Shown here one piece after another: positions 4,242 through 52,106 of a DNA stretch of 64,000 nucleotides. The stretch is from NCBI RefSeq assembly GCF_004125825.1, contig NZ_QQWI01000005.1, positions 304,414 to 368,413 on the forward strand. The letters are read 5' to 3'. Position numbers and translations under genes: made by a program. A model generated the notes under the pieces. It searched no databases and was not told the DNA's origin. It saw only the letters and a program-made list of their open reading frames with translations. The stretch's first letter is position 1, and each line of letters starts with the position of its first letter. The stretch comes from Fusibacter sp. A1 (GTDB taxonomy: Bacteria > Bacillota > Clostridia > Peptostreptococcales > Acidaminobacteraceae).

Positions 4242-4261
4242 GGGGGGTATCTCCTTTGTTT

Positions 4262-4716: not shown

Positions 4717-4724
4717 ATGAATAT

Positions 4725-4753
4725 ATAGTATCAGAAGTTGCGCGGATTGGCAA
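4725..4753 (-). promoter_or_regulatory. Candidate sigma-A promoter for the alaS leader
   Basis: On the minus strand: TTGCCA, 17 nt, TACTAT. Confidence 0.4.
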
Positions 4754-4758
4754 GTAGA

Positions 4759-4792
4759 AAGAGGTACAGCCCTCTTTTACAGGCTGTACCTC
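4759..4792 (-). terminator. Stem-loop terminator downstream of mnmA
   Basis: Perfect 12-bp stem AGAGGTACAGCC / GGCTGTACCTCT with a 10-nt loop, followed by a T-rich stretch. Confidence 0.45.
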
Positions 4793-4805
4793 TAGTTATT
4801 TCTGA

Positions 4806-5915
4806 TTATCTGACTACTGATTCGATAAATCCGCCACCGATGACTTCATCGCCCACGTAGAAAGCAACTGCCTGCCCTGGGGTGATGGCCCTTTGAGGCT
4901 CATCGAAGATGACTTCGTATTTTCCATTTCCTAGAGGCCTGATCACAGCAGGTGACTCTCGTTTTGTGTGACGTATCTTTGCGGCAATCTGCATCTCACC
5001 ATTTAACTCGTCAAAGCTGATCCAATTCACTTCGCGTGCTATAAGCCCCTTTGCAAACACGTCGTCATTTGAACCTAAAATAACATCGTTTGTCACATGG
5101 TTGATCGCAACGACATACATGGGTTTCCCAAAGGTCATGCCTAAGCCCTTACGTTGACCGACCGTATAGTAGATGATCCCCCTATGTCTACCCAAGACAT
5201 TTCCGTCAAGATCGACAAAGTTACCTTCTGGCACCATCTCTTCAATATTTTTGACAAGAAAGTTCGCATAGTCGTTGTCTGGAATAAAACAGATTTCCTG
5301 GCTATCCGCTTTCCTTGCGATAACAAAATCGAGCTTCTCAGCGATTTGTCGTACTTCTTCCTTGGTTTCAAACTCACCGATTGGCATTAATGTATGGGCA
5401 AGCTGGTCCTGCGTAAAGTTCGTGAGCATGTAGGTCTGGTCCTTGCTCATTTCCTTTGAACGCATCAGCTTATATCGATTGCTCTCTTCATCATGGACAA
5501 TCTTAGCATAGTGGCCTGTAGCCACATAGTATGCGCCAAGTTCTTTTGCCTTTTGAAGCAGTTTATCAAATTTGATGTACTTATTGCACATCACGCATGG
5601 ATTAGGCGTTTCACCTTCCTCATACGAGTCTACAAAGTAATCGATGACATGCTCTTTAAATGGCGCCTTAAAATTAACCACATAAAAAGGTATATCCAAG
5701 CTTGCTGCCACTCGTCTCGCATCCTCGACAGCAGACAAACTACAGCATCCACCGTAATTTTCAACATACTCGTCATTGGGGTCATCCCAAAGCTTCATGG
5801 TGACGCCGATAACCTCATATCCCTGTTCTTTTAACAGATAAGCTGCCACAGTGCTGTCCACACCGCCCGACATGCCTATTACCACTTTTTTCTTATCAAG
5901 CATAAATGCCATCAA
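4806..5915 (-). CDS. mnmA: tRNA 2-thiouridine(34) synthase
   Basis: 369 aa. PP-loop SGGVDS, catalytic Cys motifs. Last gene of the isc operon as in Clostridia and Bacilli. Confidence 0.9.
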   Translation of the reverse strand: MMAFMLDKKKVVIGMSGGVDSTVAAYLLKEQGYEVIGVTMKLWDDPNDEYVENYGGCCSLSAVEDARRVAASLDIPFYVVNFKAPFKEHVIDYFVDSYEEGETPNPCVMCNKYIKFDKLLQKAKELGAYYVATGHYAKIVHDEESNRYKLMRSKEMSKDQTYMLTNFTQDQLAHTLMPIGEFETKEEVRQIAEKLDFVIARKADSQEICFIPDNDYANFLVKNIEEMVPEGNFVDLDGNVLGRHRGIIYYTVGQRKGLGMTFGKPMYVVAINHVTNDVILGSNDDVFAKGLIAREVNWISFDELNGEMQIAAKIRHTKRESPAVIRPLGNGKYEVIFDEPQRAITPGQAVAFYVGDEVIGGGFIESVVR

Positions 5916-35514: not shown

Positions 35515-38500
35515 CTACTTCAGTTTGCTGCTATCAACACTAACTTCAATTCTATCAATCTGATGATTGCGCATGAAAATTCGTTGACTGATTGACTTAT
35601 TAAGCATGTTGGTAGCTTCGAACTCACCTGATGTTCCATCGTTGTAATAGACTGTAATCTTGCGCTCAAGAGCAAACTTGTAAACAACCGGAACCGCACA
35701 GAACGTAAAGGCTAAGGAACCAGGCTCAAGTTGTATTGCCGTTTTTTGCGTCTTGTCACCTTTTGAAGGTAGAGTCCATAGGCTCGCATCTTTAAGAAAC
35801 TCAGACTTAGGAAGTAGTACTGGATCAAAAATAAGACAACCGCTTTTAACCTTGACGCCTAGTTCTCCGAACCGTGCGATGAAATCTTCCTTAACCTGCC
35901 CAGTCATTCCTGGTTGCTGCACTCCTGCAAAACCTGGAGTGTGAGAATAAGGATCTGTTGGGAACGCACCATAGTCTTCCGGCGACTTCTCTAGTCCGAT
36001 TCCCGCTTTTATGTCTTCATAATAATGCATTAGCTCTTTTGTCTCATGACTCATTCCACTCGTTGTGTACGCGTCAAAAAAGTTTTCCTGAGTGATCAAG
36101 GCTAATTTGGAAACCATATGCCAGTAGATGCATCCAAGGCCTTCATACTTGTAAAAAGTGCCCGAACGTCCTGTGAATGCGTGATGGTTGAACAGTCTAG
36201 TAAAGATTTCTCCAACCGCTTCTATATCCGAAACCTCATAATCATTTGATCTTTCAATCGCTTCAACCAACTCATCGCTGTTTCTGAATTGTCCATTAAA
36301 ATGATAGTTTCCATGAATATCTTTTTCAATAAATCTTGTCCGTCCAGCGTCGATTTCGGTTTTAAGTACTACTGAAGACATCACCTCAGCTGCTGGCACG
36401 ATATTCTTTTCTAAAAATTTTGGTAGCTCGCGGTTTGGATAAAGCATATAGCTGTTCTGATCCTCGCGGTAAATACTGCTGCTTCTTAGTGCCTTTAAGA
36501 CGCTTACAGCCTCTTTACTGTCAAGCGCCTTAGAACTGAGCACGGCGACCTGACCTTCTAGCATTTCATATAAATTAGAAACAGAACACGTATCACCGTC
36601 GAAGTGAATCAGGTTGTAAGAGTGATATAGACCATCTTCACGTTTATTCTTATTGATTGAATCCTTTAAGTGATCTGATGAAACCTCAATAAACGCCTTT
36701 AGCGATTCAGTCGGCAATGCTTTTTTTATACCTGTAAAACCATTGTCGTAGATCGAATTTCTATACGTCTGACCGATCTCACCAAGTGACTTGACTACTG
36801 CAAATCGATTCTCGTTTGAAATGTTCTGACCTAGTAACTGCCTATTCTCTTCAAGTACAGTCAAGGTATCGTTAAACATGTCAAGTACTTCTATAGAAAC
36901 TTCAATTTCCTGTTCGGTGATTCCTTCTACAAGATCGCGCATATATGCCAAGAACCGATGTAAGTAACCTAAAGTGACCATAGAGAGCCCATTACCGACA
37001 AGAGCGTTGTTCGCATCATTCCACTCAGGTCGCTGCGTATTCATCCAAATGCCACCTTCCGGTACATAGTTTGAAAATTTAGACAACATTGTTACCAGTA
37101 GCTTTTCCATCAGGTTCACCTTATAAGTCTCATCCCCCTGATATATCAGTTTTCCGTCTGATCCCACTACTTTTGTTTTATCATCAATACGTCTTCCTAG
37201 CTCGTCATCAAAGTCGATGCTGTTCCTTGGGTCTTTGACTAAAGATTTAAAATCTCTTATTCTATATGGCACATTCGCATAGACGAAAACATTTTTATGA
37301 AGAAGCTCTTTTAACTTGCTGGAATCATAATCATTGGAGAGTTCCAAAAGTTTAAGCAAGTAGATGATCTGATGGTCGCCCCAATAACCTATATTGGACC
37401 ATGGATCTTGCGGATCGTGCACCTCCCAATCAATTCCTTCTTTTGTGATTCTGTAAGGATTGTATCCATCCGCCGTCGAAGCATTTAGAAATTTGGCGAT
37501 GATACTTTCAATATACCCAGGGTATGAAATAGACAGCGCTTCCCAGTTTTGAAAAATATCACGCCAGTTTCCTTCAAATTTAAGTTTTTTACTTCCATCA
37601 TCCTTGAATAGATCAATATTGAATTTATTCCACGGACGACTTGGGTCTCCGTGTCTTCTGCTATAGGTAAGCGGTAAGTATTCGTACACCAGTCGTTCAA
37701 AATCTGGGCTGTTAAGTTCTTTTACCAGTGCCAACAACTCATGATACTCAATCGTCTCAGGTAACTGCTTTAAAACGTTAAGATGCATATCATAGACCGA
37801 CTTGTTCCAACCTTCGATGAACTCGTTAAAATCATCTGTATCGATTTTATATTCATCGGCGTAAATACCACCTCTCATGATATTGTAAAGGGTGTTCGAA
37901 AAATGACGGTAGCCCGCCTTCTCATTTGCAGTATGCTGAAAGCCGTCAGCTTCAAATACGAGCCTTCTTAACTTGTTATCACCCTTTAAAACGTCAGCAC
38001 TTAACTCTTGAATTATCATTTGATTCACTTTTAACGAATTTATGAGGCTCTCTACGGATGCGGCACTTTGGTTTAGCTCTGCAACAATCACCCATTCTCT
38101 TTTTTCGTTGCCGCTTAGTTCAAGGGTATCATGAACATAATAGGCGCCTCGTCTCCCTTTGACATCGTACTCCGTTTCAATGGAATTCCCCTTTGTAAAC
38201 ACAGCTAGCTGCTGTTCTGATAAAAGATAAGTCGGATTATCAAAGCCTTTTGACCAAACCGTCGTGGCTTTGAGCGACTCACTTGGTTCAGCCTTATCAG
38301 AAAGGATTGAGCTTAATGTGTATATTCCAAGACCTGTATCCGCATGTAGTTCACATCGTTTGTATCCGTCGACAAGCGTGCTTTTTGTGGTTTGCATCAG
38401 TGTATCTACACCATACGGAAGTATATTTCTAATTCCATCTAAAACCTTGACCTTTATAACTGATTCAGAAAGATTGATAAGTTCAGATGCTTTTACAAAT

Positions 38501-38982
38501 CCGAAAGTGTCGGAACTTTTCCATGTATAGCTAAAGCTCACATTCAAGTCATGATTGATTTCTTCAAAGATGATTTTATTACCTATCGCATTTTTGTAGA
38601 GATTACGCGAAATGACATAGACATCCGCATGTTGAGTAGAAAATGGCTTCCACAAAAACCGTTTCTCTTCTTTTTCGACGATCAAGACGGTATCAGAACC
38701 AGAAGTCTCAATGCTGTCATGTATCTTATCGTCCGTATAATATGGAAACAGCGCTGAATCGGCATTCTTACGTCCGCAAGTCACACCACCCGTGCTTGAT
38801 ATATACATCCAGTGGTCTACATCGCTGACTACAGACATAAAAAAGGGATCCATCTGATTAAAATTCTCAATCTTGAAGAAAGTCTCATCGGATCTTCTTA
38901 TCGTTTCAAGCGAAATCGATTTCGTAAATGGGTTTAAAAGATTGCTGCCAAAATACAAATCTTGTTCATTGCTCATTTTCAT
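35515..38982 (-). CDS. Large cytoplasmic GH94-like glycoside phosphorylase family protein (possibly beta-1,2-oligoglucan phosphorylase-like)
   Basis: 1155 aa, no signal peptide. RPEWNDANNAL resembles the GH94 catalytic-acid motif (G)DWND. Lies in a locus with GH1, ROK kinase, LacI and HAD phosphatase. Confidence 0.5.
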   Translation of the reverse strand: MKMSNEQDLYFGSNLLNPFTKSISLETIRRSDETFFKIENFNQMDPFFMSVVSDVDHWMYISSTGGVTCGRKNADSALFPYYTDDKIHDSIETSGSDTVLIVEKEEKRFLWKPFSTQHADVYVISRNLYKNAIGNKIIFEEINHDLNVSFSYTWKSSDTFGFVKASELINLSESVIKVKVLDGIRNILPYGVDTLMQTTKSTLVDGYKRCELHADTGLGIYTLSSILSDKAEPSESLKATTVWSKGFDNPTYLLSEQQLAVFTKGNSIETEYDVKGRRGAYYVHDTLELSGNEKREWVIVAELNQSAASVESLINSLKVNQMIIQELSADVLKGDNKLRRLVFEADGFQHTANEKAGYRHFSNTLYNIMRGGIYADEYKIDTDDFNEFIEGWNKSVYDMHLNVLKQLPETIEYHELLALVKELNSPDFERLVYEYLPLTYSRRHGDPSRPWNKFNIDLFKDDGSKKLKFEGNWRDIFQNWEALSISYPGYIESIIAKFLNASTADGYNPYRITKEGIDWEVHDPQDPWSNIGYWGDHQIIYLLKLLELSNDYDSSKLKELLHKNVFVYANVPYRIRDFKSLVKDPRNSIDFDDELGRRIDDKTKVVGSDGKLIYQGDETYKVNLMEKLLVTMLSKFSNYVPEGGIWMNTQRPEWNDANNALVGNGLSMVTLGYLHRFLAYMRDLVEGITEQEIEVSIEVLDMFNDTLTVLEENRQLLGQNISNENRFAVVKSLGEIGQTYRNSIYDNGFTGIKKALPTESLKAFIEVSSDHLKDSINKNKREDGLYHSYNLIHFDGDTCSVSNLYEMLEGQVAVLSSKALDSKEAVSVLKALRSSSIYREDQNSYMLYPNRELPKFLEKNIVPAAEVMSSVVLKTEIDAGRTRFIEKDIHGNYHFNGQFRNSDELVEAIERSNDYEVSDIEAVGEIFTRLFNHHAFTGRSGTFYKYEGLGCIYWHMVSKLALITQENFFDAYTTSGMSHETKELMHYYEDIKAGIGLEKSPEDYGAFPTDPYSHTPGFAGVQQPGMTGQVKEDFIARFGELGVKVKSGCLIFDPVLLPKSEFLKDASLWTLPSKGDKTQKTAIQLEPGSLAFTFCAVPVVYKFALERKITVYYNDGTSGEFEATNMLNKSISQRIFMRNHQIDRIEVSVDSSKLK

Positions 38983-40569: not shown

Positions 40570-40856
40570 CTATGCCGCTTTCGGATCTGAACCGAAGGTA
40601 TTCCCACCAAGCGTGCCTTCTGTAACCATTAAGATGAAGAACCAGATTTGTCCGATAAGTGGTATCCATGAAATGAGAATCCACCAAGCCGACTTGTTGA
40701 TATCGTGTAATCTTCTGAACGTCAATGCAAAACTTGGAATAACAACAATCAACGCATATAGATAATACAACGCTGCGAAGTTGAAATACCACTAATTTTT
40801 CTATATTTTTTTTTCATATCTTGCAAACTCATAGTGGTCTTCCAGTATGAACTTAT
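40570..40856 (-). pseudogene. DUF805-family membrane protein, N-terminus frameshifted and overlapping the GNAT gene
   Basis: C-terminal 70 aa (RRLHDINKSAWWILISWIPLIGQIWFFIL...GSDP) is a typical DUF805. The upstream N-terminal region sits in another frame as KYRKISGISTSQ, corresponding to KYANFSGRASRSE. Confidence 0.4.
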
Positions 40857-41283
40857 CATAGAGTTCAAAACCGTTGTGTTCATATATGCTTCTAAGAAAG
40901 ACGTTTCCCCACGCTGTATCAAGACGCAACTTATCCACTTTTCGTTTTTTGCATTCATCCACGGCATAATTGATCAGATGTCCGGTTAAGCCTTGACCTG
41001 AAAAACTTCTTCTCACGCTCATATGGTGTAGATAACCTGCATCATTTTTATCAAATTCCGGCCAAAACTGATGATCTTCCCACTGCATGATCATCGCAGC
41101 TGCATCTTCGCCATCGACCGTGATCAAGTAAAACTCATCTTCAGAATAATAGTTCAATAAATTTTCACGATTCAACTCTTGTTCGTTCCATATATTTCTG
41201 CCGATATTTTTTCCCCAGTGAGCGACTTCTTTCATGATTGCGATCGATCGGTCTACTTCACCAACATGTAGTTCTATTGTCAT
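40801..41283 (-). CDS. GNAT-family N-acetyltransferase (YuaI-like by position)
   Basis: Acetyl-CoA motif A (RSFSGQGLTGHLINYAV). Confidence 0.8.
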   Translation of the reverse strand: MTIELHVGEVDRSIAIMKEVAHWGKNIGRNIWNEQELNRENLLNYYSEDEFYLITVDGEDAAAMIMQWEDHQFWPEFDKNDAGYLHHMSVRRSFSGQGLTGHLINYAVDECKKRKVDKLRLDTAWGNVFLRSIYEHNGFELYDKFILEDHYEFARYEKKI

Positions 41284-41449: not shown

Positions 41450-44400
41450 TTAACTTTCATTCACAGCAACTTCGAATACGTCTTTGATCTTACATAAGCT
41501 ATCTCGAAGATCGCTCAGTACAACTACCGCTTGACCCATTTTATCATCACTTCCAGCCAATTTACTCTTTTGGTAGACTTGCTTGATCTCTGAATATCTG
41601 GCTGATTCATGTTCATTCATATGGCCTGTGATTTCTTTCCATTTCAGAAGGTTGGATTCAGCTCCAGTAGTCAGTGTTTGGCAATCATTTTCATAGCTTG
41701 CTATGATTTGTTCTGTCAACTCAGTATCATTCATCACAGATACGACGCGTTGAGCGATCTTGTTCATGTTTCTGTAAGACCCTTGAAGCTTAAACGGCGG
41801 CTCATTTCTGTATTCGTCAGACTGAGCTGCAGAATGGATATACTCCATATTGACTCTTAAAACAATGTCTCTGACATGACTTAACTTGGTAATCACTTGA
41901 GTGTACTCATTAAGTTCATCGGCCGTATAACTACTTTCCAATGTGATCGACTCCCTATCGACGCCGTTTGCCATCTGCACAAGACCGTATAAGTCAGACT
42001 GGCTTCGACTTGAAAGCTTTGATAAGACAGGGTTAGACGTCAAGCTGTTCTCAATGTAACTAAGCTTGAAGGCTTCCTCATTCTCACGTAGCATGTCCCC
42101 TAGGTTATAAACATCAGCCCTATTGGCAAGCATATCCGGTATTTTAAACTTGGCGCCACTTTCAGTATAAGGATTACCGGCCATGACAACCGCTATTTTC
42201 TTACCTCTCAAATCGTATGTCTGACCGACTCCATTGTAGACACCTTCAATCTTACGCTGCCCGTCGCAAAGGGAGATAAATTTTTGCAAGAACTCAGGGT
42301 CGCAGTGTTGAATATCATCAAGATACAACATCACATTGTTCCCCATTTTAAGCGCTAGATTCAACTTTCTCAGTTCTTCCTTGGCACTCGAATGTGAAGC
42401 CTTGTCAGGATCAAGCGAAGTGATTTCGTTTCCAAGGGAAGGACCATTGATCTTTACAAGAATTATGCCTAATCTGCTGGCGATATATTCCATCAGTGTC
42501 GTCTTACCATAACCAGGCGGCGATACTAAAAGTAGTAATCCCATAAGATCCGTTCGCTTATCATCACCCACTACACCCATTTGCTTAGCAAGATTCTCTC
42601 CTACTAAGGGTAGATACACCTTGTCGATCAGTCTATTTCTGACAAACGATGTCAGCACATTGGGTTTAAAGTCGTCAAGACGAAGTACCTCTTTGAAGTT
42701 TTTGATCAACTCACTTTTAAGTGCGTTGAACTTCAGATAATCATCTACCACTTCTTCGCTGAATAAACGCATTTTTGACATGAACTTTGTATAGCTAAGT
42801 TCGTAAGTTCCATCTGCGATTACGCCGTGCGAGCCTACAAGACCTTCAATAACCGTTTTAGTCGGTACTTGTATGACACCGCTCATGTTCACATCTTCTT
42901 CAAGGAGCAGAACGACCACTTCGTTCAATATGCCTGGCCAATCCTCAGCCTCAATATCCATAGGTGTCTTAAGGCTAGCCGTCTGCTCGTTCCAGTATGC
43001 CAAGACCCATTCCTTAACTAGGAAGAATTGTCCTTCCAGATCGGCTTTACTTGCCTTTAAAGACGCTTCAAAGCTTTCCAGCGCATGATTATCTCTAATA
43101 AACGCTTTAAATCCATCATAGACTTGTTTTGCTTCTAGACTTATCACAAAGGATGTCCCTTGCATTAACTCCTTGCACAAGTATTCCGATGAGGCTTCGA
43201 TACTCACCTTGTCATAAAAACCAAGGGTGTCAAACGCCTTTTCCAGGTTTTCTACAACTAAGGGAAGATAGTTATCCAGACTTGGCGCTGATTTGAAAAA
43301 TGTGCCTACTTTAGTCAAGTGATTCAACCGCGTACTTAACAACGTCTTCGTCTGCTCATCTACAAGACGACTCCAGAATAACCTCGCCATTGATCTTACA
43401 TCGCTTTGATAAGTCAACAGGTTGATATGGTGATGAAGATGAAGTAGCGCGCTTAATATCTTTGTCGCATCCTCATCATGCACCCCTTTTGTATACCCTT
43501 CCTGATACCTTGTCTCCATAAACGTCCTGACACGGTCTAAAAGTTGTGAATCCGACATATCGTATAACGTCTGTAAACTTTCAATTTGTAGATTCCTTGA
43601 TGCTTCAAAAGCAGTATATGCCAGATACTCTCCCCTATAGACATCAGCATTTTCAGAAACGAGTGTCTGTTCAAATACATGCTGATACCCGCTCAATTCA
43701 CGGTGGACCACCCTATCCCAAAAATCAGTTCCTGTGATGTGGTAGTAAAGCTGATTATCCTTTTGAACAATGGATAGGTCAATCGCCTTTCTGTTCACAG
43801 AAAAATGATGGTTGCCAAATTTGATGACATCCTGTCCATTCAGGTAGAGGTCTTGCTTGTCTTTCAACTGACGTATGGCATTTTCTTTGAGTGATTTGAG
43901 CTTGGCACTTACTTCATCCGCTTTGACGCTGTCTCCAAGTGACCTTAGTTCAGAAATGATATCTCTGACTTTTTCGGCCATGATATCAGATGCAAGATAA
44001 CCGTTGATCATTTCAATCGTATCAAGGCCCATCAAACGATTTTGAATACCACCGATGATACGCTGTGAAGAATCGAAAAGTGCGACCAACCGCTTATTAA
44101 GCTTATCTAGTAGCGTCTGCTTTCTCGATTCGAATGCGCTGTAGATCTCTTCTCTTTTTTCATCAAGCTTTATAAGATACTCTTCAAACTCAGAAAACTT
44201 ACCTTCAAGCTCCTGAAGCTGTACCATCACCTTATTCAGGTAATTGTCACACTTGTCTTCTGTATCAGCTATTTCAAGATAGTTCAAAACAGCCTGACCA
44301 AGCAGCTTCATTTGAGCGTTAAACTGAATCGTCATCTCGGTTTTTGTGAAGGTTTCGATTCTGACTTTCAGTTTGGCTTTCGCATTATTCATCAAGGAGA

Positions 44401-46336
44401 AGAGAGCAGAAATCTTTTCGATAAGTTCTGTTGTCACTGTCGGGTCTTCGATTTTAAAATTGCTTACTATTTCCATCAACAACTCTAAATCGGTGGACGT
44501 CTTGTCCATTTTTACAGCAAGTTCATTTCCCTCTAGCGACTTTTCGACCGATTCGATCGAACTATGCAACTCATCTACAACCATCTCATACGGCTTCAGG
44601 CCGTCTGGGCTTACGATGAACGCGACACATTTTTCAGAAAATGCGTCATTTTTTTCTTTGACGCGATCCTCTAATTTCTGAACCACGTCAAGGTCTGTAT
44701 ACATCAGATCTCTCAACGAGACTATTTCACCGCGTATGTTTCTGATTTCGCCAAGTACATCGACGTATTCATTGATGTTCTCAAAGGTTCCATATTCAAT
44801 CTTTTTAAGCAGCTCCTCCGTTGTCTTTCCAACTAGTTCGATTTGCTTCTTTGCTACTTCCTTCATTCGAATGACTTTTTCGAATTCTCCAATTGCAAAA
44901 GTGGATGTCTCTTTGATCTCCTTAAGCACCTGAGCAAGATTGAAAGCCTCATCCTTATCCACCCAAAAGTAGGAATCCAAAATGTTTTGAGTTTCCTTTA
45001 CAATATCAAGGTACACGCTTTGATAGCTGTCCCCCTTTTGTACAAGTTTTCCGACACCTCTGCAGGCCGCTATACAGTCAACGACATCCTTATTGCCTAT
45101 CTTGTAGAGTACCGAATCCCTATTCCCCTGAGCAACATGATTCTTGCCGACATAAGGTGTCTGCCATACTTGAAGTGAATGGTTTTTTCTGGGTTCATTC
45201 TCATGTCTGAATACGATCATCTCACCACTATTAAAATGTGAATAGCCACTACAGACGATAGGCATTTCTATTGTCTGCTCAATCATATTATACGAGTACA
45301 TCAGATAGGTACCGCTATCCATATTATAAAAGATATACTGATAGTCCTCGCCGTTTGTAGAACTGATAATCTGATCAAACACCGCATTTTCTAGGGGCAC
45401 GTCAAAGAGCTTATATTCCCCACTTCTCAAGTAATACCCTTGAGGAAAGATCAAGCCATGTCCTCCTGGCAAAAGCTTGCACGTATGTTCCATTGAATCA
45501 ACTCGAACCACATTCTTCAACTTGTTGTTGAAGACAAAGTAACGGTAGGCTTTTTCCTTATAGGGAAGAATCTTAAGCAGGATCAGCTGATCCAAGTCCA
45601 CATAGTAGATCTCGGCATCGTCAAGGTTTTGGTCCTTATCCTCAACAACCTCAGAATAGATACCTTTTCCCGTTTCGGTATTGTCCTCAACCTTAATCGT
45701 AAGGTCTCCACCTATAGTTTCGACAAATACCTTATCCAGAATGGAAACATGGGGGTGGATACCTGTTCTTTGCTGGTCTCTTGTCGCCCTCTGAAAGTCG
45801 AAATCATTGCCTAGGTTGAACTTTACTTCGTGCTCGCTTCTGTTATCGACATAAATCAAACGACGACCTTCGATCAGCCACTTGAACACTTTAATATCCG
45901 TCGCAGCTTTTCCGGTCTGAAAGACCATGTAAAAGTAAGGTTCAGAGATTGTGAACTTGGCAAAGAAGGTGTTCTTGTAGTACTGATACAGATCATCAAA
46001 ATCCTTTTTGAAAAGGTCATCGTTGATCAGTTCGAGGGATTCCTTTATGAATCCCTCTTCACCATACTTGTAAATTGAGAAAACATCCTCAAGTTCAACC
46101 TTTTGCTTCAAGCCGATATGAACGTTGTATCCAAAAAGGAAGCAATCGTCCACAGGTGCCATATCACGAGGGATGCAGTTGTTCTCTGTAAGAATCCTCT
46201 CACTGGCAAGTAGTTTTGTATCAACGGACCCAAAAACATCTTTTCTAGTAGCATTCAATTTCTCCGCTCTTGTTTTTAAGTCGACACCTTGTTTTTCCAG
46301 ACGACTCTTAATTACCTCATAAGTCCCTGAATCCAT
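41450..46336 (-). CDS. Giant (≈1630 aa) uncharacterised AAA_5-type ATPase
   Basis: Start at the ATG 1 nt after the flotillin stop, with a TTGGAG RBS. N-terminal ~450 aa beta-rich, ~750 aa helical/coiled-coil, then Walker A SPPGYGKTT, Walker B VMLYLDDIQH and sensor VVMAGNPY near residues 1250-1420. Function unknown, although the ORF itself is near-certain. Confidence 0.5.
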   Translation of the reverse strand: MDSGTYEVIKSRLEKQGVDLKTRAEKLNATRKDVFGSVDTKLLASERILTENNCIPRDMAPVDDCFLFGYNVHIGLKQKVELEDVFSIYKYGEEGFIKESLELINDDLFKKDFDDLYQYYKNTFFAKFTISEPYFYMVFQTGKAATDIKVFKWLIEGRRLIYVDNRSEHEVKFNLGNDFDFQRATRDQQRTGIHPHVSILDKVFVETIGGDLTIKVEDNTETGKGIYSEVVEDKDQNLDDAEIYYVDLDQLILLKILPYKEKAYRYFVFNNKLKNVVRVDSMEHTCKLLPGGHGLIFPQGYYLRSGEYKLFDVPLENAVFDQIISSTNGEDYQYIFYNMDSGTYLMYSYNMIEQTIEMPIVCSGYSHFNSGEMIVFRHENEPRKNHSLQVWQTPYVGKNHVAQGNRDSVLYKIGNKDVVDCIAACRGVGKLVQKGDSYQSVYLDIVKETQNILDSYFWVDKDEAFNLAQVLKEIKETSTFAIGEFEKVIRMKEVAKKQIELVGKTTEELLKKIEYGTFENINEYVDVLGEIRNIRGEIVSLRDLMYTDLDVVQKLEDRVKEKNDAFSEKCVAFIVSPDGLKPYEMVVDELHSSIESVEKSLEGNELAVKMDKTSTDLELLMEIVSNFKIEDPTVTTELIEKISALFSLMNNAKAKLKVRIETFTKTEMTIQFNAQMKLLGQAVLNYLEIADTEDKCDNYLNKVMVQLQELEGKFSEFEEYLIKLDEKREEIYSAFESRKQTLLDKLNKRLVALFDSSQRIIGGIQNRLMGLDTIEMINGYLASDIMAEKVRDIISELRSLGDSVKADEVSAKLKSLKENAIRQLKDKQDLYLNGQDVIKFGNHHFSVNRKAIDLSIVQKDNQLYYHITGTDFWDRVVHRELSGYQHVFEQTLVSENADVYRGEYLAYTAFEASRNLQIESLQTLYDMSDSQLLDRVRTFMETRYQEGYTKGVHDEDATKILSALLHLHHHINLLTYQSDVRSMARLFWSRLVDEQTKTLLSTRLNHLTKVGTFFKSAPSLDNYLPLVVENLEKAFDTLGFYDKVSIEASSEYLCKELMQGTSFVISLEAKQVYDGFKAFIRDNHALESFEASLKASKADLEGQFFLVKEWVLAYWNEQTASLKTPMDIEAEDWPGILNEVVVLLLEEDVNMSGVIQVPTKTVIEGLVGSHGVIADGTYELSYTKFMSKMRLFSEEVVDDYLKFNALKSELIKNFKEVLRLDDFKPNVLTSFVRNRLIDKVYLPLVGENLAKQMGVVGDDKRTDLMGLLLLVSPPGYGKTTLMEYIASRLGIILVKINGPSLGNEITSLDPDKASHSSAKEELRKLNLALKMGNNVMLYLDDIQHCDPEFLQKFISLCDGQRKIEGVYNGVGQTYDLRGKKIAVVMAGNPYTESGAKFKIPDMLANRADVYNLGDMLRENEEAFKLSYIENSLTSNPVLSKLSSRSQSDLYGLVQMANGVDRESITLESSYTADELNEYTQVITKLSHVRDIVLRVNMEYIHSAAQSDEYRNEPPFKLQGSYRNMNKIAQRVVSVMNDTELTEQIIASYENDCQTLTTGAESNLLKWKEITGHMNEHESARYSEIKQVYQKSKLAGSDDKMGQAVVVLSDLRDSLCKIKDVFEVAVNES

Positions 46337-46337
46337 A

Positions 46338-48362
46338 TTATGCTCCAATTACATTTTCAATTAGATTGGCTGGTAGATTTGCAACACCCGCCTTGTTTAC
46401 AGTATCAAGTAGCTTAGTCAACATCGCATGGTCGTTTCCTTCTGCAGTCTTCATCATTTTTCCTATAGCACCCGAAATGGTGATGTTCATCAGGTCTTGA
46501 GAAGATAAGTTGAATCTTCCTACCATCGTTTTAAGCTGCTGCTGGAAGTAGTCCGCGTCTCCTGTGATGAGGGTCTCTTTGATATCCTTTAGCACTTCAC
46601 TGTTGTTTACAACACGGTCAACCGCCTTACCTTGCGCGATCGAACCGATAATTTTGTCAAAGAACATCGTTTCTCCACCGACAATATCGATCTTAGCTGA
46701 TTTAAGCGCTTCTCTGATAACAGACGCTTGAGCATCTGCAATATCCTTTTGAATGGTGATTTGAGCAAGTTCGATCTGTTTTTCCTTATCAAGCTTGAGT
46801 TTGAACTCTTCATGATCTCTGCCTACAGCATCAAGTAATTTCATGCTATTGGCCTTTTCCTTGATACCTTCAGCTTCTGAAAGGTACATTCTCTTAAGGT
46901 TTGCAGCTTCGACAGTACCGTCTTTCTCTTTTACTTCTACTTTGGCGGTTTCGCCTTTGGCTTCTGCAAGTGCTTTCGCTTCAATCACTTTCGATGCGGC
47001 AATACCTTCGACAGAACCTTCCAGCACTCTGGCATCAACAATCACCTTGATCGCTTCCGCTTCTTTATGAGCGGCTTTCAGATTTGCATCTGCGTCGATA
47101 ATTGTCTTTTCGGCTTCTTTTTCAGCAGCCATCTTGGCGGCTTCCGCACCTTTAACAACAAGAATTTGCTTTGTTTCCGCCTCTTCTTCTGCTTTTCTGA
47201 GCGCTACATTTTTTGTACGGTTTGCATCCGCAAGCGCACGCGTGTCTTTGATTTTTTCTTCTTCCACCACGGTATCTTTTTCGACAGTCACTCTTTCTCT
47301 AATTACCGTCTGTATATTCTTCTTCTCAACTTCTACTAGCTTTTCCTTATCGATGATAGCAAGCTCGACAAGCTTTTCCTTTTCAGTTCTCTCAAGCAGT
47401 CTTTTTCTTTCTACACGTTCAGTTTCGATGGCTTCTGTGCTTTCCTTGGACTTTGCCGCAATGATGATCTGTCTTTGCTTGTTCTCCTCGGCTACACCAA
47501 TCTCTTCTTCTGTCTTCACTCTGGCAAGCTCAGACTTATAGCGTTCTTCTTGAGCGACCTTTTCAGCTTCGGCGATTTCACGTGAATTGATGATCGAAAT
47601 CTCTCTAAGCTGTTTGGCTTCGGCTTCGGCGTTTTGCTTTTCAAGTTCTAAAATAGCTTCTCTTGCCGATACGTCTTGTCGCTTGATTGTCTTTTCGCGT
47701 TCTCTTTCAATCTCGTTGGCCAATATTCTTTGAGTTGAAGTCAGTTCTGTGATCTTCTTGATCCCCTCAGAATCCAAAATGTTGTCAGGATTCAACAAGC
47801 GAATGTCGGTTTGCTCCAGATAATCGATCGCGGCATCATCCAACACATAACCGTTTAAGTCCGTGCCGATGATCTGCAGGATTTCACTCTTAAAAGTCTC
47901 ACGGTCCGTATATAACTGAACAAAATCAAACTTTTTGCCTACAGTCTTAAGCGCTTCAGAGAATTTTGCATCAAAGAAGGCCATTAGGGTTTCCGGATCG
48001 GATGCTTTTTGACAACCCAGCAGCTGTGCGACTTTTAAAACGTCATCTGTCGTCTGATTGACACGAACGAAGAATGCGACACGGATATCCGCCCTTAAGT
48101 TGTCTTTACAGATCAAGCCGTCCTTGCCTTCTCTAGCGATTTCGACACGTTTGATCGAAATATCCATCTCCTCTTTGCGGTGGATGATGGGTACTACCAT
48201 GATGCCGCCAAAGCAGACAACCTGATTGCCGATACCGTTTCTAATGATTACCTTCGACTGCTCCACCTTGTGATAGAAACTGGCAAATAAGGCCAGTAGT
48301 CCAACCACAATGACGATTGATGCTCCTACCGTGACAAGGGTTCCTTGTAATAAAACATTCAT
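46338..48362 (-). CDS. floT: Flotillin-family (SPFH/band-7, FloT/YqiK-like) protein
   Basis: N-terminal TM + SPFH domain, then a long EA/K-rich coiled-coil. Start at MNVLLQG with GGAGGAA RBS, not the longer ORF start at 48377. Confidence 0.85.
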   Translation of the reverse strand: MNVLLQGTLVTVGASIVIVVGLLALFASFYHKVEQSKVIIRNGIGNQVVCFGGIMVVPIIHRKEEMDISIKRVEIAREGKDGLICKDNLRADIRVAFFVRVNQTTDDVLKVAQLLGCQKASDPETLMAFFDAKFSEALKTVGKKFDFVQLYTDRETFKSEILQIIGTDLNGYVLDDAAIDYLEQTDIRLLNPDNILDSEGIKKITELTSTQRILANEIEREREKTIKRQDVSAREAILELEKQNAEAEAKQLREISIINSREIAEAEKVAQEERYKSELARVKTEEEIGVAEENKQRQIIIAAKSKESTEAIETERVERKRLLERTEKEKLVELAIIDKEKLVEVEKKNIQTVIRERVTVEKDTVVEEEKIKDTRALADANRTKNVALRKAEEEAETKQILVVKGAEAAKMAAEKEAEKTIIDADANLKAAHKEAEAIKVIVDARVLEGSVEGIAASKVIEAKALAEAKGETAKVEVKEKDGTVEAANLKRMYLSEAEGIKEKANSMKLLDAVGRDHEEFKLKLDKEKQIELAQITIQKDIADAQASVIREALKSAKIDIVGGETMFFDKIIGSIAQGKAVDRVVNNSEVLKDIKETLITGDADYFQQQLKTMVGRFNLSSQDLMNITISGAIGKMMKTAEGNDHAMLTKLLDTVNKAGVANLPANLIENVIGA

Positions 48363-48380
48363 ATAGTATTCCTCCATAAG

Positions 48381-49082
48381 TTAAATAGTGTTGCCATCGT
48401 TCATCAGTGGTGTGGTGATAAAGTACACATCGTCCACCTTATCCTTGCTAAATACAAATACGGTCTCACCTTTTTTATAAACAAGATGTTTGTCGGCTGT
48501 GGTGACATTAATGACAATCGATACTCCGTCCTGCATGATCTCTGCCTGTCCGAGCCGTCCATATTCCACATCGCTTTTCAAAGTGCATCTTTTGTAAAGC
48601 ACCCTATGGGCAATGTCTTCCTCATTTTTCCTTTCAAAAAAAAGCTTTCTTATCGGAATAAGCTCAAGTTTCGTTATGTAAAGGCTCAAAAAAAATGCCG
48701 GTATCAAAAGCACCGCGCTGATCAGACCGCCCGCTTGAATCGGAAGGACATACAAGAGCATGCTTGATATCCAGAAGTTCAGAAAAATCATACTGAGTAC
48801 CAGGGCGAATGGGATATCACCGCTGTTAACAAGCACCGCGATACCGCTAAGCGGTCCTGACGCATCAGCACCTTCCACATCGAGATCGACATCAAACAAA
48901 TCAAAATCCAGAAAGCCTGTGATAGCCACCAACCAATATAGCTGCATCAAAATCAGCAGTGCGGTAGGTATGACATTTATTCCTGTAAAAGCAAATCTTA
49001 TTAATTCCGTAACAATCACCTCCATCGTACAATCATCGTAAGAACAGGTAACGACTAGGCCTAGAGTATCAGGCTTTAGCAT
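48381..49082 (-). CDS. NfeD-like (YuaF/YqiJ-type) membrane protein
   Basis: Multi-TM N-terminus, C-terminal OB-like soluble domain. Immediately upstream of flotillin as in yuaF-floT and yqiJ-yqiK. Confidence 0.6.
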   Translation of the reverse strand: MLKPDTLGLVVTCSYDDCTMEVIVTELIRFAFTGINVIPTALLILMQLYWLVAITGFLDFDLFDVDLDVEGADASGPLSGIAVLVNSGDIPFALVLSMIFLNFWISSMLLYVLPIQAGGLISAVLLIPAFFLSLYITKLELIPIRKLFFERKNEEDIAHRVLYKRCTLKSDVEYGRLGQAEIMQDGVSIVINVTTADKHLVYKKGETVFVFSKDKVDDVYFITTPLMNDGNTI

Positions 49083-49196: not shown

Positions 49197-49227
49197 AGAA
49201 AAAACAGACTACTTTACTAGTCTGTTC
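49197..49227 (-). terminator. Terminator separating the upstream gene from the nfeD-floT operon
   Basis: AACAGACTAC-TTT-ACTAGTCTGTT plus a U-run on the minus strand. Confidence 0.55.
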
Positions 49228-49295
49228 CTTGCTGTACATGGTTATTCATGATTATCGTCTAGACAAGCCCTTAGCAACCCAAGTCACAACTATCG

Positions 49296-50243
49296 TCATA
49301 GACTTTCAAAATCGGTTTCTATGATCCTTTGGTATTCCTTTTTATCGTATCGCTTTAAAACCTTGAGCGCCCTAAGTGTATTGAACCTGCCTGCCCTTGA
49401 ATCTTCAAGCCTAAAGTGCAGTTCTCCCCCATATTGAGAGCCTTTTGGCATAAAGCCTTTTCGCATGTTCTTTTTGATCAGATCAAGCCCCTCTTTCATG
49501 CGTTCATCATAATGCCTCTTCACCGATGCGAAATATTCGAGCGCGCGTAGATAGTCGTACTTCCATCTTGGCGGGTAATGTGCCCTCAGAAAATCCTTCT
49601 TGATGACTTCTCCAGTACTTACCGTATGGAATAGCCTTCTTTCAAGCAGGTATTCCTCGCCTTCGTATGATTTTTCCTGCATTTCCTCCGACCTGTATCC
49701 GTCACCCCATGTTCCATAGTCTCTAAAGGCCTCAAGTACTGTCAAGGTCGTATGGATGGATCCCCTTGTGGAAAGGTGCTTCTTATAATTCCACTCGCAG
49801 TTCCAACCCCCATCCTCCATCTGGTGATCTAAGAGTTCATCGACCATTTCGTGAGTCCGTACCTCAGTGAATCTTCCATAAGCTGCCAGACTCAGCACCA
49901 TAGCAACCACACAAAGATCAGGCCGCTTCCACATGGACTTGTAGTCTTGTGAACGCCACAACTGATCCACTAGCTTCACCATCGCCTTTTGATAATAGGG
50001 GTGCTGAAAATCGATTTCCATATACTTCAGTTCCCGCATCGTATAGTGGGTTGAGATCCATTTGGGGCTGTATATGCCCTTTCCCCATAATCCCGAGTCA
50101 TCGTCAAAAAGATCGATGTATTTCTTGATGTAACCATCTTCTGTAGAGGGAAGTTCCACCTCTAGCAAATAGGTAGAAGTCAGTCTACGTATCACCGGAT
50201 CGCCTTGCATCAACCAATCAATCACTTTCATAGGAGCCTCCAT
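49296..50243 (-). CDS. Hypothetical protein (possible alpha/alpha-toroid, QxxDGGW-like repeats)
   Basis: HQMEDGGWNCEWN and DSGLWGKG are reminiscent of prenyltransferase/terpene-cyclase repeats. Weak evidence. Confidence 0.35.
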   Translation of the reverse strand: MEAPMKVIDWLMQGDPVIRRLTSTYLLEVELPSTEDGYIKKYIDLFDDDSGLWGKGIYSPKWISTHYTMRELKYMEIDFQHPYYQKAMVKLVDQLWRSQDYKSMWKRPDLCVVAMVLSLAAYGRFTEVRTHEMVDELLDHQMEDGGWNCEWNYKKHLSTRGSIHTTLTVLEAFRDYGTWGDGYRSEEMQEKSYEGEEYLLERRLFHTVSTGEVIKKDFLRAHYPPRWKYDYLRALEYFASVKRHYDERMKEGLDLIKKNMRKGFMPKGSQYGGELHFRLEDSRAGRFNTLRALKVLKRYDKKEYQRIIETDFESL

Positions 50244-50321: not shown

Positions 50322-50356
50322 AAAACCAGGCTGCAGTTTAGCAGCCTGATTTTTTC
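50322..50356. terminator. Bidirectional terminator
   Basis: CCAGGCTGC-AGTTTA-GCAGCCTG flanked by A/T runs. Confidence 0.5.
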
Positions 50357-52106
50357 AGATTACTTGCATTTGATCATTTAGTCCAGATAAATACGTCTTC
50401 CACATCTTACTGAAGTGCCTATCATTCGCATGAAGCTCATCAAGCGTGCCTGATTCAACGATTTGCCCTTGATCCATTACGATAATCAGATCAAACATTT
50501 CAAGTAGGTGCAGTTGATGAATCGGCGTGATGATCGTACGATCCTTGAACTCATTGAGAATCTGACTGAAGATCATTTTTTCATTCAACGCATCGACACT
50601 GCTGCTGATCTCGTCAAGCAAGAGCATTGATTTATGCCTGGCAAAGAACAAGGCTCTTGCAAGTGCTAAGCGTTGTTTTTAACCACCAGACAAATTGACG
50701 CCTTTCTCCCTGATATCGGTATCAAGTCCCTTTGGGAATCCTTTCAACACTTCTGAAAATCTTGATATGACGAGTATTTTTTCCATATACTTCTCATCGT
50801 AGTCCATACCGAATGTGATATTATACCGAATTGTATTTTCAAAAATTTCGATATCCTGAGGCGCCAGCAGACTCATTTGATTGATGCAGTGAAAGTCATT
50901 GATTTTGATGCCGTCAATGATAAGGTCTCCATTACTTGGAGTATGAAACCCTGCAAGCAAATGAATCAGCGTGCTTTTTCCAGATCCGCTACTTCCGATT
51001 ATCGCCACTTTACTTCCAGTACGGAGATCCAGGTTGATGTTGCGAAGCGTACTCTCCTGATTATCATAGCTGAAGTGAAGATTCCTATTTGCAATGTGCT
51101 CCCATGACTCTACTTCTACTGAAACGCTCTTAGCAGTTAATTCGTCGGAAGTTGTGACAATCTGCGAAACTGATTGTAGTGAAGTTTTCCAATCCATCGT
51201 ATCGTAGAAGGTATTTGTAATGTCAAAAAATGATGTGCTCATGGTTTTAAAGTAATTGACAATGGCGATCAGCGATCCAATGATGATCACTCCACCCGCT
51301 TCGCTAGCCGACCACAAGAAAAACAAAATGAGAACAAGTTCTGTTATGAAAGTCCCGGATGCGCTTATGAAGCAGCGCGGTTGGTTTATTTTGAATTCCC
51401 GCATTCTTTCGTGAACATAATGATTGAACTTGTGATTCAGAACCTCATTGGTCTCCTCTTTTAAATGCAGGTTGATCACAGTACGAATGTTGACGATAAA
51501 ATCGAACAACTTAGCAGTATAAGCATGAGTCTCTTCGTTGATACTGTGTAGTATCGGTTGAATAAGCAAATTCATTTTGGTAACTACAACTAAGTTGACC
51601 AGAGTCAAACCGATACATATCATCGAATACTTCCACGAGTAGTTGATGAGTATGAACACCGGTCCGACCGATAATAAAAGATTTCCAAGCATTTCGTGCT
51701 GCATGAACCCATAATCCCTAAGTGAAAAGCTGGCAGTATTGATTCGATTGACAAGCTCTCCAGAATGATTGTTGGTATGCCATTGTATTGGCAAGGAATA
51801 CACTCTACCATACATGTCATCTACAAAGTTCTTTTGCATCGTATATGCCACGGTTAATTCAAAATATCTTGCAGTATGATGAAAAACTTGAAAAGCCAGA
51901 AATCCTACCAGATACATGGACAGCCAAAATAGCGTTGGTCGAATATTTCCAATTCCATTTACTTGCAGCAAGTTGATCGCTTTACCAAATGAATAGGGCT
52001 GAAAAAGAACCCCTGCAAAAGACAAGCTGTGTAAAAAGTATAAAAGAACAATCTTCCAACGTTCTTTTTCCGCATAAATCCATGCTGTTTTAAAAAGATA
52101 TAACAT
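50355..52106 (-). pseudogene. Fused TMD-NBD ABC exporter interrupted by an in-frame TAA in the LSGGQ signature
   Basis: Walker A GSSGSGKST and signature LSGG, then TAA (50679-50681) where Gln is expected. Downstream in-frame KQRLALARALF...LLLDEISSSVD (Walker B). Confidence 0.6.

Follow-up and report, generated by a model that had tools for sequence, protein, structure and literature searches.

The closest described system is an operon reported from comparative genomics (Ravi et al., mSystems 2024, PMC11237479), in which a "Betapropeller+Coiled-coil+AAA-ATPase" is encoded beside flotillin and YqiJ/YuaF in CesT/Tir-PspA operons, some of whose proteobacterial versions also include a gene for phospholipase D. 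In Pfam and RefSeq terms the published protein is DUF3686 + DUF7902 + AAA and 'DNA repair ATPase', respectively; the paper contains no motif analysis, structure or experiment. The giant ATPase of Fusibacter sp. A1 described here shares with the published operon its domain order as well as both partner genes upstream, those of flotillin and of the YqiJ-like protein, and its flavobacterial and alphaproteobacterial relatives reproduce the published order HTH / CesT_Tir / PspA / YqiJ / flotillin / ATPase. The window (the whole stretch of DNA analysed, 64,000 nucleotides of contig NZ_QQWI01000005.1, to which all positions refer) differs from it in holding no PspA or CesT gene anywhere, and since the CesT/Tir-PspA dyad is absent within these 64 kb, the locus represents the published 'abbreviated' form with three genes. 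Any PspA link in Fusibacter sp. A1 would, given this absence, have to act in trans.

Pfam, RefSeq and the 2024 paper between them already cover this widespread family, its architecture and the operon, so that the finding is not novel, and as a discovery the giant ATPase adds little. What goes beyond PMC11237479 is the invariant Asp-Asp Walker B motif, a predicted MoxR-like fold that includes a pre-sensor-1 hairpin, and two further domains, one beta and one alpha, that separate the stalk from the ATPase module. In the literature searched we found no experimental study of any family member and no papers under DUF3686, PF12458 or 'DNA repair ATPase' together with flotillin; a preprint on a flotillin-associated rhodopsin was set aside as irrelevant to the giant ATPase.

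More distant parallels are offered by HflK/C-FtsH, prohibitin with the m-AAA protease, and Vps4 with ESCRT-III, in each of which an SPFH or ESCRT-III polymer is attached to the membrane and a ring ATPase works on it or inside it. The giant ATPase resembles these systems, by analogy only, in being linked genetically to an SPFH protein and, in a subset of phyla, to PspA. FtsH and Vps4 are AAA+ enzymes of the classical clade; the giant ATPase belongs to another clade and lacks a protease domain, a transmembrane anchor and an MIT domain.

The three-gene cassette and its conservation

The gene of the giant ATPase (DUF3686 family; ORF scan, RefSeq, Pfam) occupies 41450..46336 on the minus strand and encodes 1628 aa plus the stop. 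Its reading frame runs without interruption through 41450..46348, where a TTG start would give 1632 aa and the ATG at 46336 gives 1628 aa. The ATG is the likely start, because a Shine-Dalgarno sequence read as GGAG (46343..46346, minus strand) lies 6 nt upstream and because the TAA stop of the flotillin gene (46338-46340) precedes it by 1 nt, a spacing that also suggests translational coupling. RefSeq contains a Fusibacter protein, entered as "DNA repair ATPase", that is 100% identical to the 1628-aa product, and together with the uninterrupted frame and the Shine-Dalgarno sequence this bears out the gene proposed in the initial annotation, which had been made from the letters alone. No hydrophobic segment was found in the protein (maximal Kyte-Doolittle score over 19 residues, 1.19), and as a transmembrane segment is absent, the ATPase is expected to be cytoplasmic.

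Directly upstream in the same operon lies the gene of a 679-aa YqiK-type flotillin (SPFH) membrane protein (46338..48377, minus strand). It gave no match in Pfam, NCBIfam or PDB sequence searches and was identified by a direct BLASTP comparison with E. coli YqiK, to which it is 30% identical over 438 aa (E=2e-43). The first cassette gene (48381..49082, minus strand) encodes a multi-pass membrane protein of 233 aa that is YqiJ/YuaF-like (NfeD-type); pairwise BLASTP against YqiJ was not significant and a family profile was required, which aligned with E. coli YqiJ in hhalign at a probability of 90.8% (E=1.2e-6), and Pfam YqiJ_N (PF21001) was matched by 8 of 14 members of this membrane-protein family. 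The order is thus YqiJ-like, flotillin and, last, ATPase, with 1-3 nt between genes. Upstream of the cassette, a pattern scan marked a terminator-like hairpin (49199..49230, minus strand) that is probably the end of the preceding transcription unit, although such sites are no more frequent in the region than in shuffled sequence, which makes the hairpin weak evidence.

The arrangement is widely kept. In 72 of 76 loci the gene that directly precedes the ATPase encodes a flotillin homolog, the other four being cut off at a contig edge, and YqiJ-like homologs occur in 62 of the 76. These loci span at least eight phyla and come from Clostridia, Halanaerobiales, Planctomycetota, Bacteroidota, Spirochaetota, Acidobacteriota, Lentisphaerota/Victivallales and Alphaproteobacteria, and the ATPase is also carried by tractable hosts, among them Proteus mirabilis, Vibrio campbellii and plasmid pQBR103 of Pseudomonas fluorescens SBW25. 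On this plasmid the flotillin/ATPase pair comes after genes for PspA, a rhomboid protease, DUF350 and a glutathionylspermidine synthase-family protein. PspA/IM30 (PF04012) adjoins in 11 related loci and CesT_Tir_1 (PF22550) in six; beyond flotillin, YqiJ-like, PspA, CesT and HTH proteins no neighbour recurs in the related loci, and no VWA-domain partner is among those that do. Between phyla the ATPases are 41-49% identical over ~1600 aa, and such strong conservation fits a core cellular machine.

Domain architecture of the giant ATPase

A Pfam scan of the ATPase returned DUF3686, DUF7902 and AAA/AAA_5, and the same set (DUF3686, DUF7902, C-terminal AAA) is found in all 240 homologs listed. By these profile matches the protein is a member of the Pfam DUF3686 (PF12458)/DUF7902 family, which RefSeq names "DNA repair ATPase". 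The DUF3686 head (44966..46282, minus strand; residues 19-457, from Pfam and AlphaFold2) covers profile positions 1-448 of 448 with 582.6 bits against a cut-off of 25 and E=5.5e-175. The N-terminus, part of the enormous appendage of the initial annotation, thus matches an existing Pfam family over its full length and is followed by DUF7902, which is the outcome that the annotation had itself named as refuting its reading. Among relatives the DUF3686 head is always N-terminal, in proteins of 1600-2036 aa.

In the AlphaFold2 model of residues 1-1200 (pLDDT 82.9, with a pTM of 0.47 that leaves the mutual placement of the domains uncertain) the head has an N-terminal helix at residues 5-35, then ~25 strands within residues 41-392, in agreement with the beta-rich head that had been predicted. 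The Foldseek matches of the head are propellers (IFT-A, Elp1, prolyl oligopeptidase, the clathrin terminal domain, WD40 and kelch proteins). The model of residues ~40-392 fits a beta-propeller-like fold, and the tentative earlier suggestion of a propeller gains from both the model and these matches.

The head is followed by a helical stalk (43850..44965, minus strand; residues 458-829), modelled as at least 10 helices joined by short loops and resembling spectrin-type bundles, with DUF7902 (44357-44602, minus strand; residues 579-660; Pfam E=1.6e-22) inside it. Counted from residue 409 to 829, the model holds at least 12 discrete helices of 15-58 aa each, and a crude heptad scan flagged only ~280 residues between 461 and 831. 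According to the model, then, the middle region is ~370-420 aa of broken, spectrin-like helical bundles. The ~750-aa coiled coil of the initial annotation was both too long and too uniform: the predicted helices are separate, they lie between residues 409 and 829, and a beta and an all-alpha domain come after them.

The first of these is a small beta domain (43712..43828, minus strand; residues 837-875, VIKFGNHHFSVN...HITGTDFW) with strands predicted by AlphaFold2. It includes some of the best-conserved residues of the family, His866, Gly869 and Thr870 being invariant in a 57-sequence alignment, and it supplied the pattern HI[TS]GTDFW that was used in the family-wide search. The second (42902..43636, minus strand; residues 901-1145) is modelled as an all-alpha globular domain with pLDDT mostly 88-94, and it has no Pfam match to any known family.

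The AAA+ module and its clade

At its C-terminus the protein carries one complete AAA+ module of the MoxR/AAA_5 type (41747..42637, minus strand; residues 1234-1530), which comprises an alpha-0 helix, an alpha/beta core and a lid, with further helices running to residue 1628; its AlphaFold2 model has a pLDDT of 81.7 and a pTM of 0.69. The Walker A motif or P-loop, SPPGYGKTT, lies at 42497..42523 (minus strand; residues 1272-1280) and is present in 302 of 306 full-length relatives. Walker B, MLYLDDIQH, is placed at 42305..42331 (minus strand; residues 1336-1344), at the end of the predicted beta-3 strand. Asp1341 stands where the catalytic Glu of AAA+ proteins (hhhhDE) is expected, and the relatives likewise have Asp-Asp in 300 of 306 cases (DDIQH 298, DDVQH 2) and Asp-Glu in none, which makes Asp-Asp a family-wide trait.

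The sensor-1 motif VMAGNPY (42167..42187, minus strand; residues 1384-1390) falls on the predicted beta-4 strand, with the candidate sensor-1 residue Asn1388 at the end of that strand, and the form xMAGNPYT is kept throughout the family. Ahead of it lies a predicted pre-sensor-1 beta-hairpin, KIEGVYNGVGQTYD (42212..42253, minus strand; residues 1362-1375), formed by model strands 213-218 and 221-226 and placed by AlphaFold2 between helix alpha-3 and the sensor-1 strand. Two conserved arginines stand out: Arg1406 in LANRAD (42113..42130, minus strand; residues 1403-1408), at the end of alpha-4 in the model, is a candidate arginine finger, and Arg1522 in GSYRNMNK (41759..41782, minus strand; residues 1519-1526), at the modelled start of a lid helix, is a candidate sensor-2 residue. 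The surrounding patterns L[AS]NR[AS]D and QGSYR[ND]MN occur in 287 and 272 of the 306 relatives, respectively.

Most of what had been read from the letters about this module is upheld. The Walker A, Walker B and sensor-1 motifs do cluster within residues ~1250-1420, the Asp-Asp of Walker B is as reported, and the motifs, which might have turned out to be spurious, are near-invariant in 306 relatives. Apart from SPPGYGKTT and MLYLDDIQH nothing in the protein resembles Walker A or Walker B, and no P-loop was found in residues 1-1200, as had been said of the N-terminal region. The layout is indeed the reverse of that of SMC/Rad50 proteins, with a single C-terminal AAA+ module behind a very large N-terminal appendage.

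Structure comparison places the module nearest to the MoxR family. The best Foldseek matches are NorQ, CbbQ and then MCM; at E<=1e-3 the PDB yields 788 matches, of which the 50 listed are without exception AAA+ ATPases, and the E-values of MoxR proteins (1e-7) are just ~10-50-fold better than those of spastin, RuvB and Lon. Of the Pfam AAA models only AAA_5 covers Walker A, sensor 1 and everything between them (residues 1268-1391); its score is marginal, 23.1 bits where the cut-off is 22, and an AAA_5 match was obtained for each of the 22 relatives tested at E<=0.01 (best 1.5e-6). Whether started from the protein or from a profile of 57 family sequences, PDB sequence searches gave only ~40-residue P-loop matches to RuvB, p97 and Rix7, from which no AAA+ clade can be assigned, and in NCBIfam only sub-threshold RuvB P-loop matches appeared (20 bits against cut-offs of 282-299). 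Of the resemblance to McrB/dynein/MoxR-type AAA_5 proteins suggested at the outset, the MoxR/AAA_5 part is supported by Foldseek and Pfam and the McrB part is not, since no McrB or McrC family was matched in Pfam, NCBIfam or PADLOC and no such neighbour recurs.

With the MoxR proteins NorQ, CbbQ and RavA the module shares, besides these structural matches, the 'NP' of sensor 1, the arginine at the end of alpha-4 and the predicted pre-sensor-1 hairpin. MoxR-type ATPases are usually paired with a VWA-domain protein; they are of ~250-500 aa and have an Asp-Glu Walker B (IVFLDEIWKA in RavA), whereas the giant ATPase has a 1230-aa N-terminal appendage, Asp-Asp, no VWA partner, marginal sequence similarity (23 bits) and no clear helix-2 insert in its model, where ~residues 1298-1315 between beta-2 and alpha-2 form a conserved loop and a short helix, without a beta-hairpin. 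The core hhhDDIQ of Walker B is identical to that of E. coli DnaA (ALLIDDIQFF), a slow, regulated ATPase and thus a precedent for the slow or switch-like hydrolysis that the initial annotation had considered possible alongside a GTPase-style function. In hmmsearch with the family AAA profile neither DnaA nor RavA showed meaningful similarity, DnaA even scoring negative, so the shared DDIQ is a parallel at the level of the motif and not homology; DnaA, of the initiator clade of AAA+, also differs from the giant ATPase in its sensor-1 motif and its fold neighbours.

Proposed function and competing readings

We consider it reasonably probable that the ATPase is the soluble subunit of a module made of a YqiJ/NfeD-like protein, flotillin and the AAA+ enzyme, and that this module remodels membrane-associated assemblies. 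As the gene of a flotillin scaffold adjoins that of the ATPase, remodelling of membrane assemblies, and not DNA repair, is the most likely function. The AAA+ modules would form a ring from which the long helical stalks would hold the propellers outward as docking or client-binding modules, and the complex would be recruited to flotillin assemblies on the cytoplasmic membrane face. Binding and hydrolysis of nucleotide might then power the building, dismantling or remodelling of polymers associated with the membrane, which could be flotillin itself and/or PspA/IM30 (ESCRT-III-like) proteins, with membrane maintenance or repair under envelope stress as the possible outcome; the arrangement would be analogous to Vps4/ESCRT-III and to FtsH enclosed in cages of HflK/C. 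Hydrolysis is probably slow or partner-gated, given the invariant Asp-Asp of Walker B, and contact of the ATPase with flotillin or PspA is something we infer from gene order only. Gene linkage, the identities of the partners, the adjacency of PspA and CesT and the conserved ATPase motifs speak for the remodelling reading; the lack at these loci of the VWA partner typical of MoxR-type ATPases and the absence of a PspA gene from the window count against it, as does the Asp-Asp motif, which could mean that the enzyme is no processive motor.

An alternative that seems unlikely to us is that the protein is a nucleotide-gated scaffold or coat and not a motor, its invariant Asp-Asp making the AAA+ module a slow ATP switch like that of DnaA, and its propeller and helical-repeat arm forming an element of a membrane-coat-like lattice that would polymerise with flotillin domes. 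Still somewhat less credible is a MoxR-style maturation chaperone that inserts a cofactor into, or matures, one membrane complex, with flotillin replacing the VWA adaptor. The pairs RavA-ViaA, NorQ-NorD and CbbQ-CbbO would be its models, and NorQ and CbbQ as best structural matches, the AAA_5 match and the JGI annotation of some homologs as 'MoxR-like ATPase' agree with it; the narrow Foldseek lead of MoxR proteins over spastin, RuvB and Lon weakens this argument, and nearby there is neither a conserved client gene nor a VWA protein, just flotillin, YqiJ and sometimes PspA/CesT recurring. Defence islands often encode giant ATPases that bear unusual appendages, which, with the PspA link that recalls the phage-shock response, would suit an anti-phage or abortive-infection module in which the protein is a membrane-associated sensor like other giant defence ATPases. 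A weak PADLOC match to IetA (P-loop only, 29 residues, 17.4 bits, E=5.6e-4) and the phospholipase D gene of some proteobacterial versions (Ravi et al., PMC11237479) point the same way. However, PADLOC gave no match beyond the P-loop and none for flotillin and the membrane protein, homologs are absent from 50,697 phage records, no defence genes recur among the neighbours of related loci, the window shows no composition anomaly at the locus, and very high cross-phylum conservation with a fixed architecture is atypical for defence genes. We hold the defence reading to be very improbable and, with the PADLOC, phage-record and neighbourhood searches negative beyond the P-loop, have rejected it.

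The chance that the protein is a true DNA repair ATPase, as it is named in Pfam and RefSeq, and kin to SMC/Rad50/SbcC/RecN, we put close to nil. Only the names given in databases ('DNA repair ATPase' or 'ATPase involved in DNA repair') and the long helical region favour this. The protein does resemble SMC/Rad50/SbcC/RecN and BrxC-type giants in being large and in having a long stretch of helices in its middle, but those have an N-terminal Walker A (in a split ABC head or a P-loop), whereas here the AAA+ module is C-terminal and the propeller N-terminal. The single AAA+ P-loop at residue 1272 comes without a split ABC-type head, Pfam and NCBIfam matched no SMC or ABC family, and Pfam, NCBIfam and PDB sequence searches detected no DNA-binding or nuclease domain; the RuvB matches cover ~45 residues of the P-loop at 19-20 bits against cut-offs of 27-299. 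The conserved neighbours, moreover, are all membrane proteins. The DNA-repair reading was therefore rejected, on its one C-terminal P-loop, the missing DNA-binding domain and its membrane-protein neighbours. The name may have been inherited from coiled-coil similarity to SbcC/RecN-type COGs, and for annotation this means that 'DNA repair ATPase' is being propagated without support and is probably misleading.

A more specific form of the remodelling proposal, which we offer as speculative and rather doubtful, is a MoxR-like ring with an Asp-Asp 'slow switch' whose six propeller-tipped, spectrin-like arms would grip flotillin domes and/or PspA (ESCRT-III) polymers. If this were true, the ATPase would be a functional equivalent, in prokaryotes, of Vps4 or coat-disassembly ATPases, as well as the first defined enzymatic partner for bacterial flotillins, whose function is still debated and to which, to our knowledge, no enzyme has been firmly tied. 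Owing to its conservation and its linkage to flotillin and PspA genes, the ATPase is a good experimental handle on the assembly and recycling of flotillin and PspA.

Domain architecture of the giant ATPase

The ATPase is encoded by an uninterrupted reading frame at 41450..46348 (-), and its start is likely the ATG at 46336, which gives 1628 aa; a GGAG lies 6 nt 5' of this ATG, and only 1 nt separates it from the TAA stop of the preceding gene. RefSeq contains this 1628-aa product at 100% identity, as "MULTISPECIES: DNA repair ATPase [unclassified Fusibacter]". The initial annotation had located its motifs exactly: Walker A SPPGYGKTT at residues 1272-1280, Walker B MLYLDDIQH at 1336-1344 and sensor-1 VMAGNPY at 1384-1390. 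A whole-protein scan returned no further Walker A- or Walker B-like match and no transmembrane-like segment; the ATPase is soluble and has a single complete AAA+ module.

In Pfam, DUF3686 (PF12458, "ATPase involved in DNA repair") covers residues 19-457 over its whole 448-position profile (E=5.5e-175), and DUF7902 covers residues 579-660 (E=1.6e-22). The AlphaFold2 model of residues 1-1200 (57-sequence cross-phylum alignment as input, pLDDT 82.9, pTM 0.47) begins with a helix (5-35) and a beta-rich domain of about 25 strands (41-392), which upholds the earlier view of a beta-rich head with a guessed propeller. Predicted next are at least 12 helices of 15-58 residues each (409-829), a small beta domain (837-875) and an all-alpha domain (901-1145). 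In place of the coiled coil of about 750 aa that had been proposed, the model has helical bundles, broken and spectrin-like, that take up about 370-420 aa, then two more globular domains.

Residues 1150-1628 are predicted to adopt an AAA+ fold (AlphaFold2, pLDDT 81.7, pTM 0.69), in which the beta-1 strand is followed by the P-loop, Walker B sits where beta-3 ends, and a pre-sensor-1 beta-hairpin (1362-1375) lies between alpha-3 and the sensor-1 strand; Asn1388 is found at the end of beta-4, LANRAD (Arg1406) closes alpha-4, and GSYRNMNK (Arg1522) is within the helical lid. When the PDB was searched with this model in Foldseek, the MoxR-type NorQ (E=1.1e-7) and CbbQ came top and MCM next, followed by spastin, RuvB and Lon, all within one or two orders of magnitude; sequence searches of the PDB matched the P-loop alone. 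AAA-type Pfam matches are weak and run from residue 1266 onward, and AAA_5, the sole Pfam AAA model spanning Walker A to sensor 1, scores 23.1 bits (cut-off 22) and matches all 22 relatives tested. It is reasonable to regard the module as AAA_5/MoxR-like, although the sequence scores are marginal and the structure is a prediction. The initial interpretation was partly right, in that a module of this type is joined to a very large N-terminal extension headed by a propeller.

Motifs were counted in 306 full-length relatives, with heads down to 27% identity: SPPGYGKTT is present in 302, DDIQH in 298 and DDVQH in 2, while an Asp-Glu Walker B occurs in none. Because of these counts, the Asp-Asp pair is, judged from sequence, an ancient and fixed family trait. 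E. coli DnaA has the same Walker B core (ALLIDDIQFF), with no similarity to the family detectable beyond it, whereas the MoxR-type RavA differs (IVFLDEIWKA). The Asp-Asp pair might make hydrolysis slow and partner-gated, or might alter nucleotide preference.

A described family and its cassette

Ravi et al. (mSystems 2024, PMC11237479; preprint 2020) described operons combining four elements, including a CesT/Tir-PspA dyad and a YqiJ/YuaF-type protein, and reported that abbreviated operons without PspA are more widespread; the gene order in the flavobacterial loci fetched here equals the published one (PMC11237479). The ATPase is the Fusibacter copy of this already described family: its N-terminus belongs to DUF3686, an outcome that the initial annotation had itself named as counting against its reading, and both architecture and operon have been published. 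No experimental study of the family was found in the literature searched, and the interest lies in its function and its tie to flotillin biology, the feature itself being known.

More than 4,000-5,000 database proteins match the ATPase at E<=1e-5, and all 240 homologues listed share its architecture (1446-1950 aa). The head domain forms 706 clusters at 50% identity and is N-terminal in every complete protein (1600-2036 aa). Genome loci, at 41-79% full-length identity, come from Clostridia, Halanaerobiales, Planctomycetota, Bacteroidota, Spirochaetota, Acidobacteriota, Lentisphaerota and Alphaproteobacteria. Records from the PLSDB plasmid collection extend the range to Proteus, Vibrio, Photobacterium, Halomonas, Pseudomonas, Hymenobacter, Nonomuraea, Streptomyces and Deinococcus, several of these records being 1.7-11.9 Mb and looking chromosome-sized; phage records gave no homologue. 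Among the homologues P0121-P0240, those of Planctomycetota, Acidobacteriota and Verrucomicrobiota reach about 1750-1900 aa, some 150-250 aa more than clostridial ones, and P0205 (1950 aa) has fused HEAT-repeat Pfam matches.

The cassette consists of genes for a 233-aa membrane protein (48381-49082, -), a 679-aa protein (46338-48377, -) and, last, the ATPase (41450-46336, -), with gaps of 1-3 nt. The 679-aa protein is identified as a YqiK-type flotillin by its alignment with E. coli YqiK (30% identity over 438 aa, E=2e-43). Searches of Pfam (Band_7/Flot), NCBIfam and PDB sequences gave zero matches to it, even at E=10, and profile libraries appear to have a blind spot for this subfamily; its identity across phyla, 50-87%, is higher than that of the ATPase. 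The 233-aa protein is assigned as YqiJ-like through its family profile (hhalign probability 90.8% against E. coli YqiJ) and through PF21001, matched by 8 of 14 family members.

A flotillin gene lies directly upstream of the ATPase in 72 of 76 related loci, the other four being cut by contig ends, and a YqiJ-like gene is present in 62. Clustering of all flanking ORFs in these loci yielded no other widely conserved neighbour bar PspA/IM30 (11 loci), a CesT_Tir_1 protein (6) and a divergent HTH regulator (5); PspA is absent from the window. Some Flavobacteriales and one Phycisphaerae locus have an additional gene, encoding about 205 aa, between flotillin and ATPase (L043:5323-5937, L064:5329-5946, L076:4980-5603; weak DUF3137 match, E=4.9e-4), and TerB-like genes of about 130-155 aa lie 3' of the ATPase in flavobacterial loci (L043:11022-11904, L064:11028-11971). 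On the P. fluorescens SBW25 plasmid pQBR103 (L079, 85452-104317), the genes that precede the SPFH-ATPase pair are those for PspA, a rhomboid protease, DUF2491, DUF350, DUF1190 and a member of the glutathionylspermidine-synthase family. Plasmids can therefore carry the module, and this host lends itself to genetic work. The plasmid is a 425-kb environmental megaplasmid, with an MvaT/MvaU-family gene immediately 3' of the cassette on the opposite strand.

Possible role at the membrane

The ATPase is in strict operon linkage with flotillin and a YqiJ/NfeD-type membrane protein, and its linkage with PspA is recurrent. We lean towards a machine that remodels flotillin and/or PspA assemblies at the membrane. 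Its AAA+ modules would make a ring, from which helical stalks may hold out the propellers to dock or to bind clients; the whole machine would be brought to flotillin assemblies at the inner membrane face, where nucleotide binding and hydrolysis could drive assembly, disassembly or remodelling of flotillin and/or PspA polymers, presumably during membrane maintenance or stress. Such action would parallel that of Vps4 with ESCRT-III and of FtsH with HflK/C.

A scaffold or coat working as a slow switch is unlikely, and a MoxR-style chaperone that matures one specific client slightly more so; we consider it improbable that the cassette is an anti-phage module. That the ATPase is a genuine DNA repair protein is the least credible reading, hardly to be entertained: the database name lacks support, because the protein is without a split ABC head, shows no detectable nuclease or DNA-binding domain, and has membrane proteins as its only conserved neighbours. 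The name was probably inherited via coiled-coil similarity to SbcC/RecN-type groups.

Other genes around the cassette

A GNAT acetyltransferase gene (160 aa, 40801-41283, -) lies 166 nt 3' of the ATPase and in the same orientation, an order that recalls yuaF-floT-yuaI of B. subtilis, in which yuaI encodes a GNAT; this adjacency is conserved in none of the 76 related loci. Further along, a 1155-aa protein (35515-38982, -) has no Pfam match and aligns end to end with the NCBIfam equivalog model for GH149 beta-1,3-glucan phosphorylase (1685 bits, cut-off 1150). Directly upstream of the cassette, beyond a terminator-like hairpin (49199-49230), is a 315-aa ORF (49296-50243, -) without a Pfam or NCBIfam family, its sole match being a weak similarity (E=0.012) to the N-terminal domain of squalene-hopene cyclase; its position beside the cassette is not conserved in other genomes. 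An ABC transporter gene with fused membrane and ATPase domains (50355-52106, -) carries an in-frame TAA at 50679-50681, on the signature Gln (LSGG*KQRLALARA, LSGGQ expected, CAA>TAA), and the frame runs on into a 98-aa ORF (50355-50651) with Walker B LLLDE; either the gene is a nonsense pseudogene or the TAA stems from a sequencing error.
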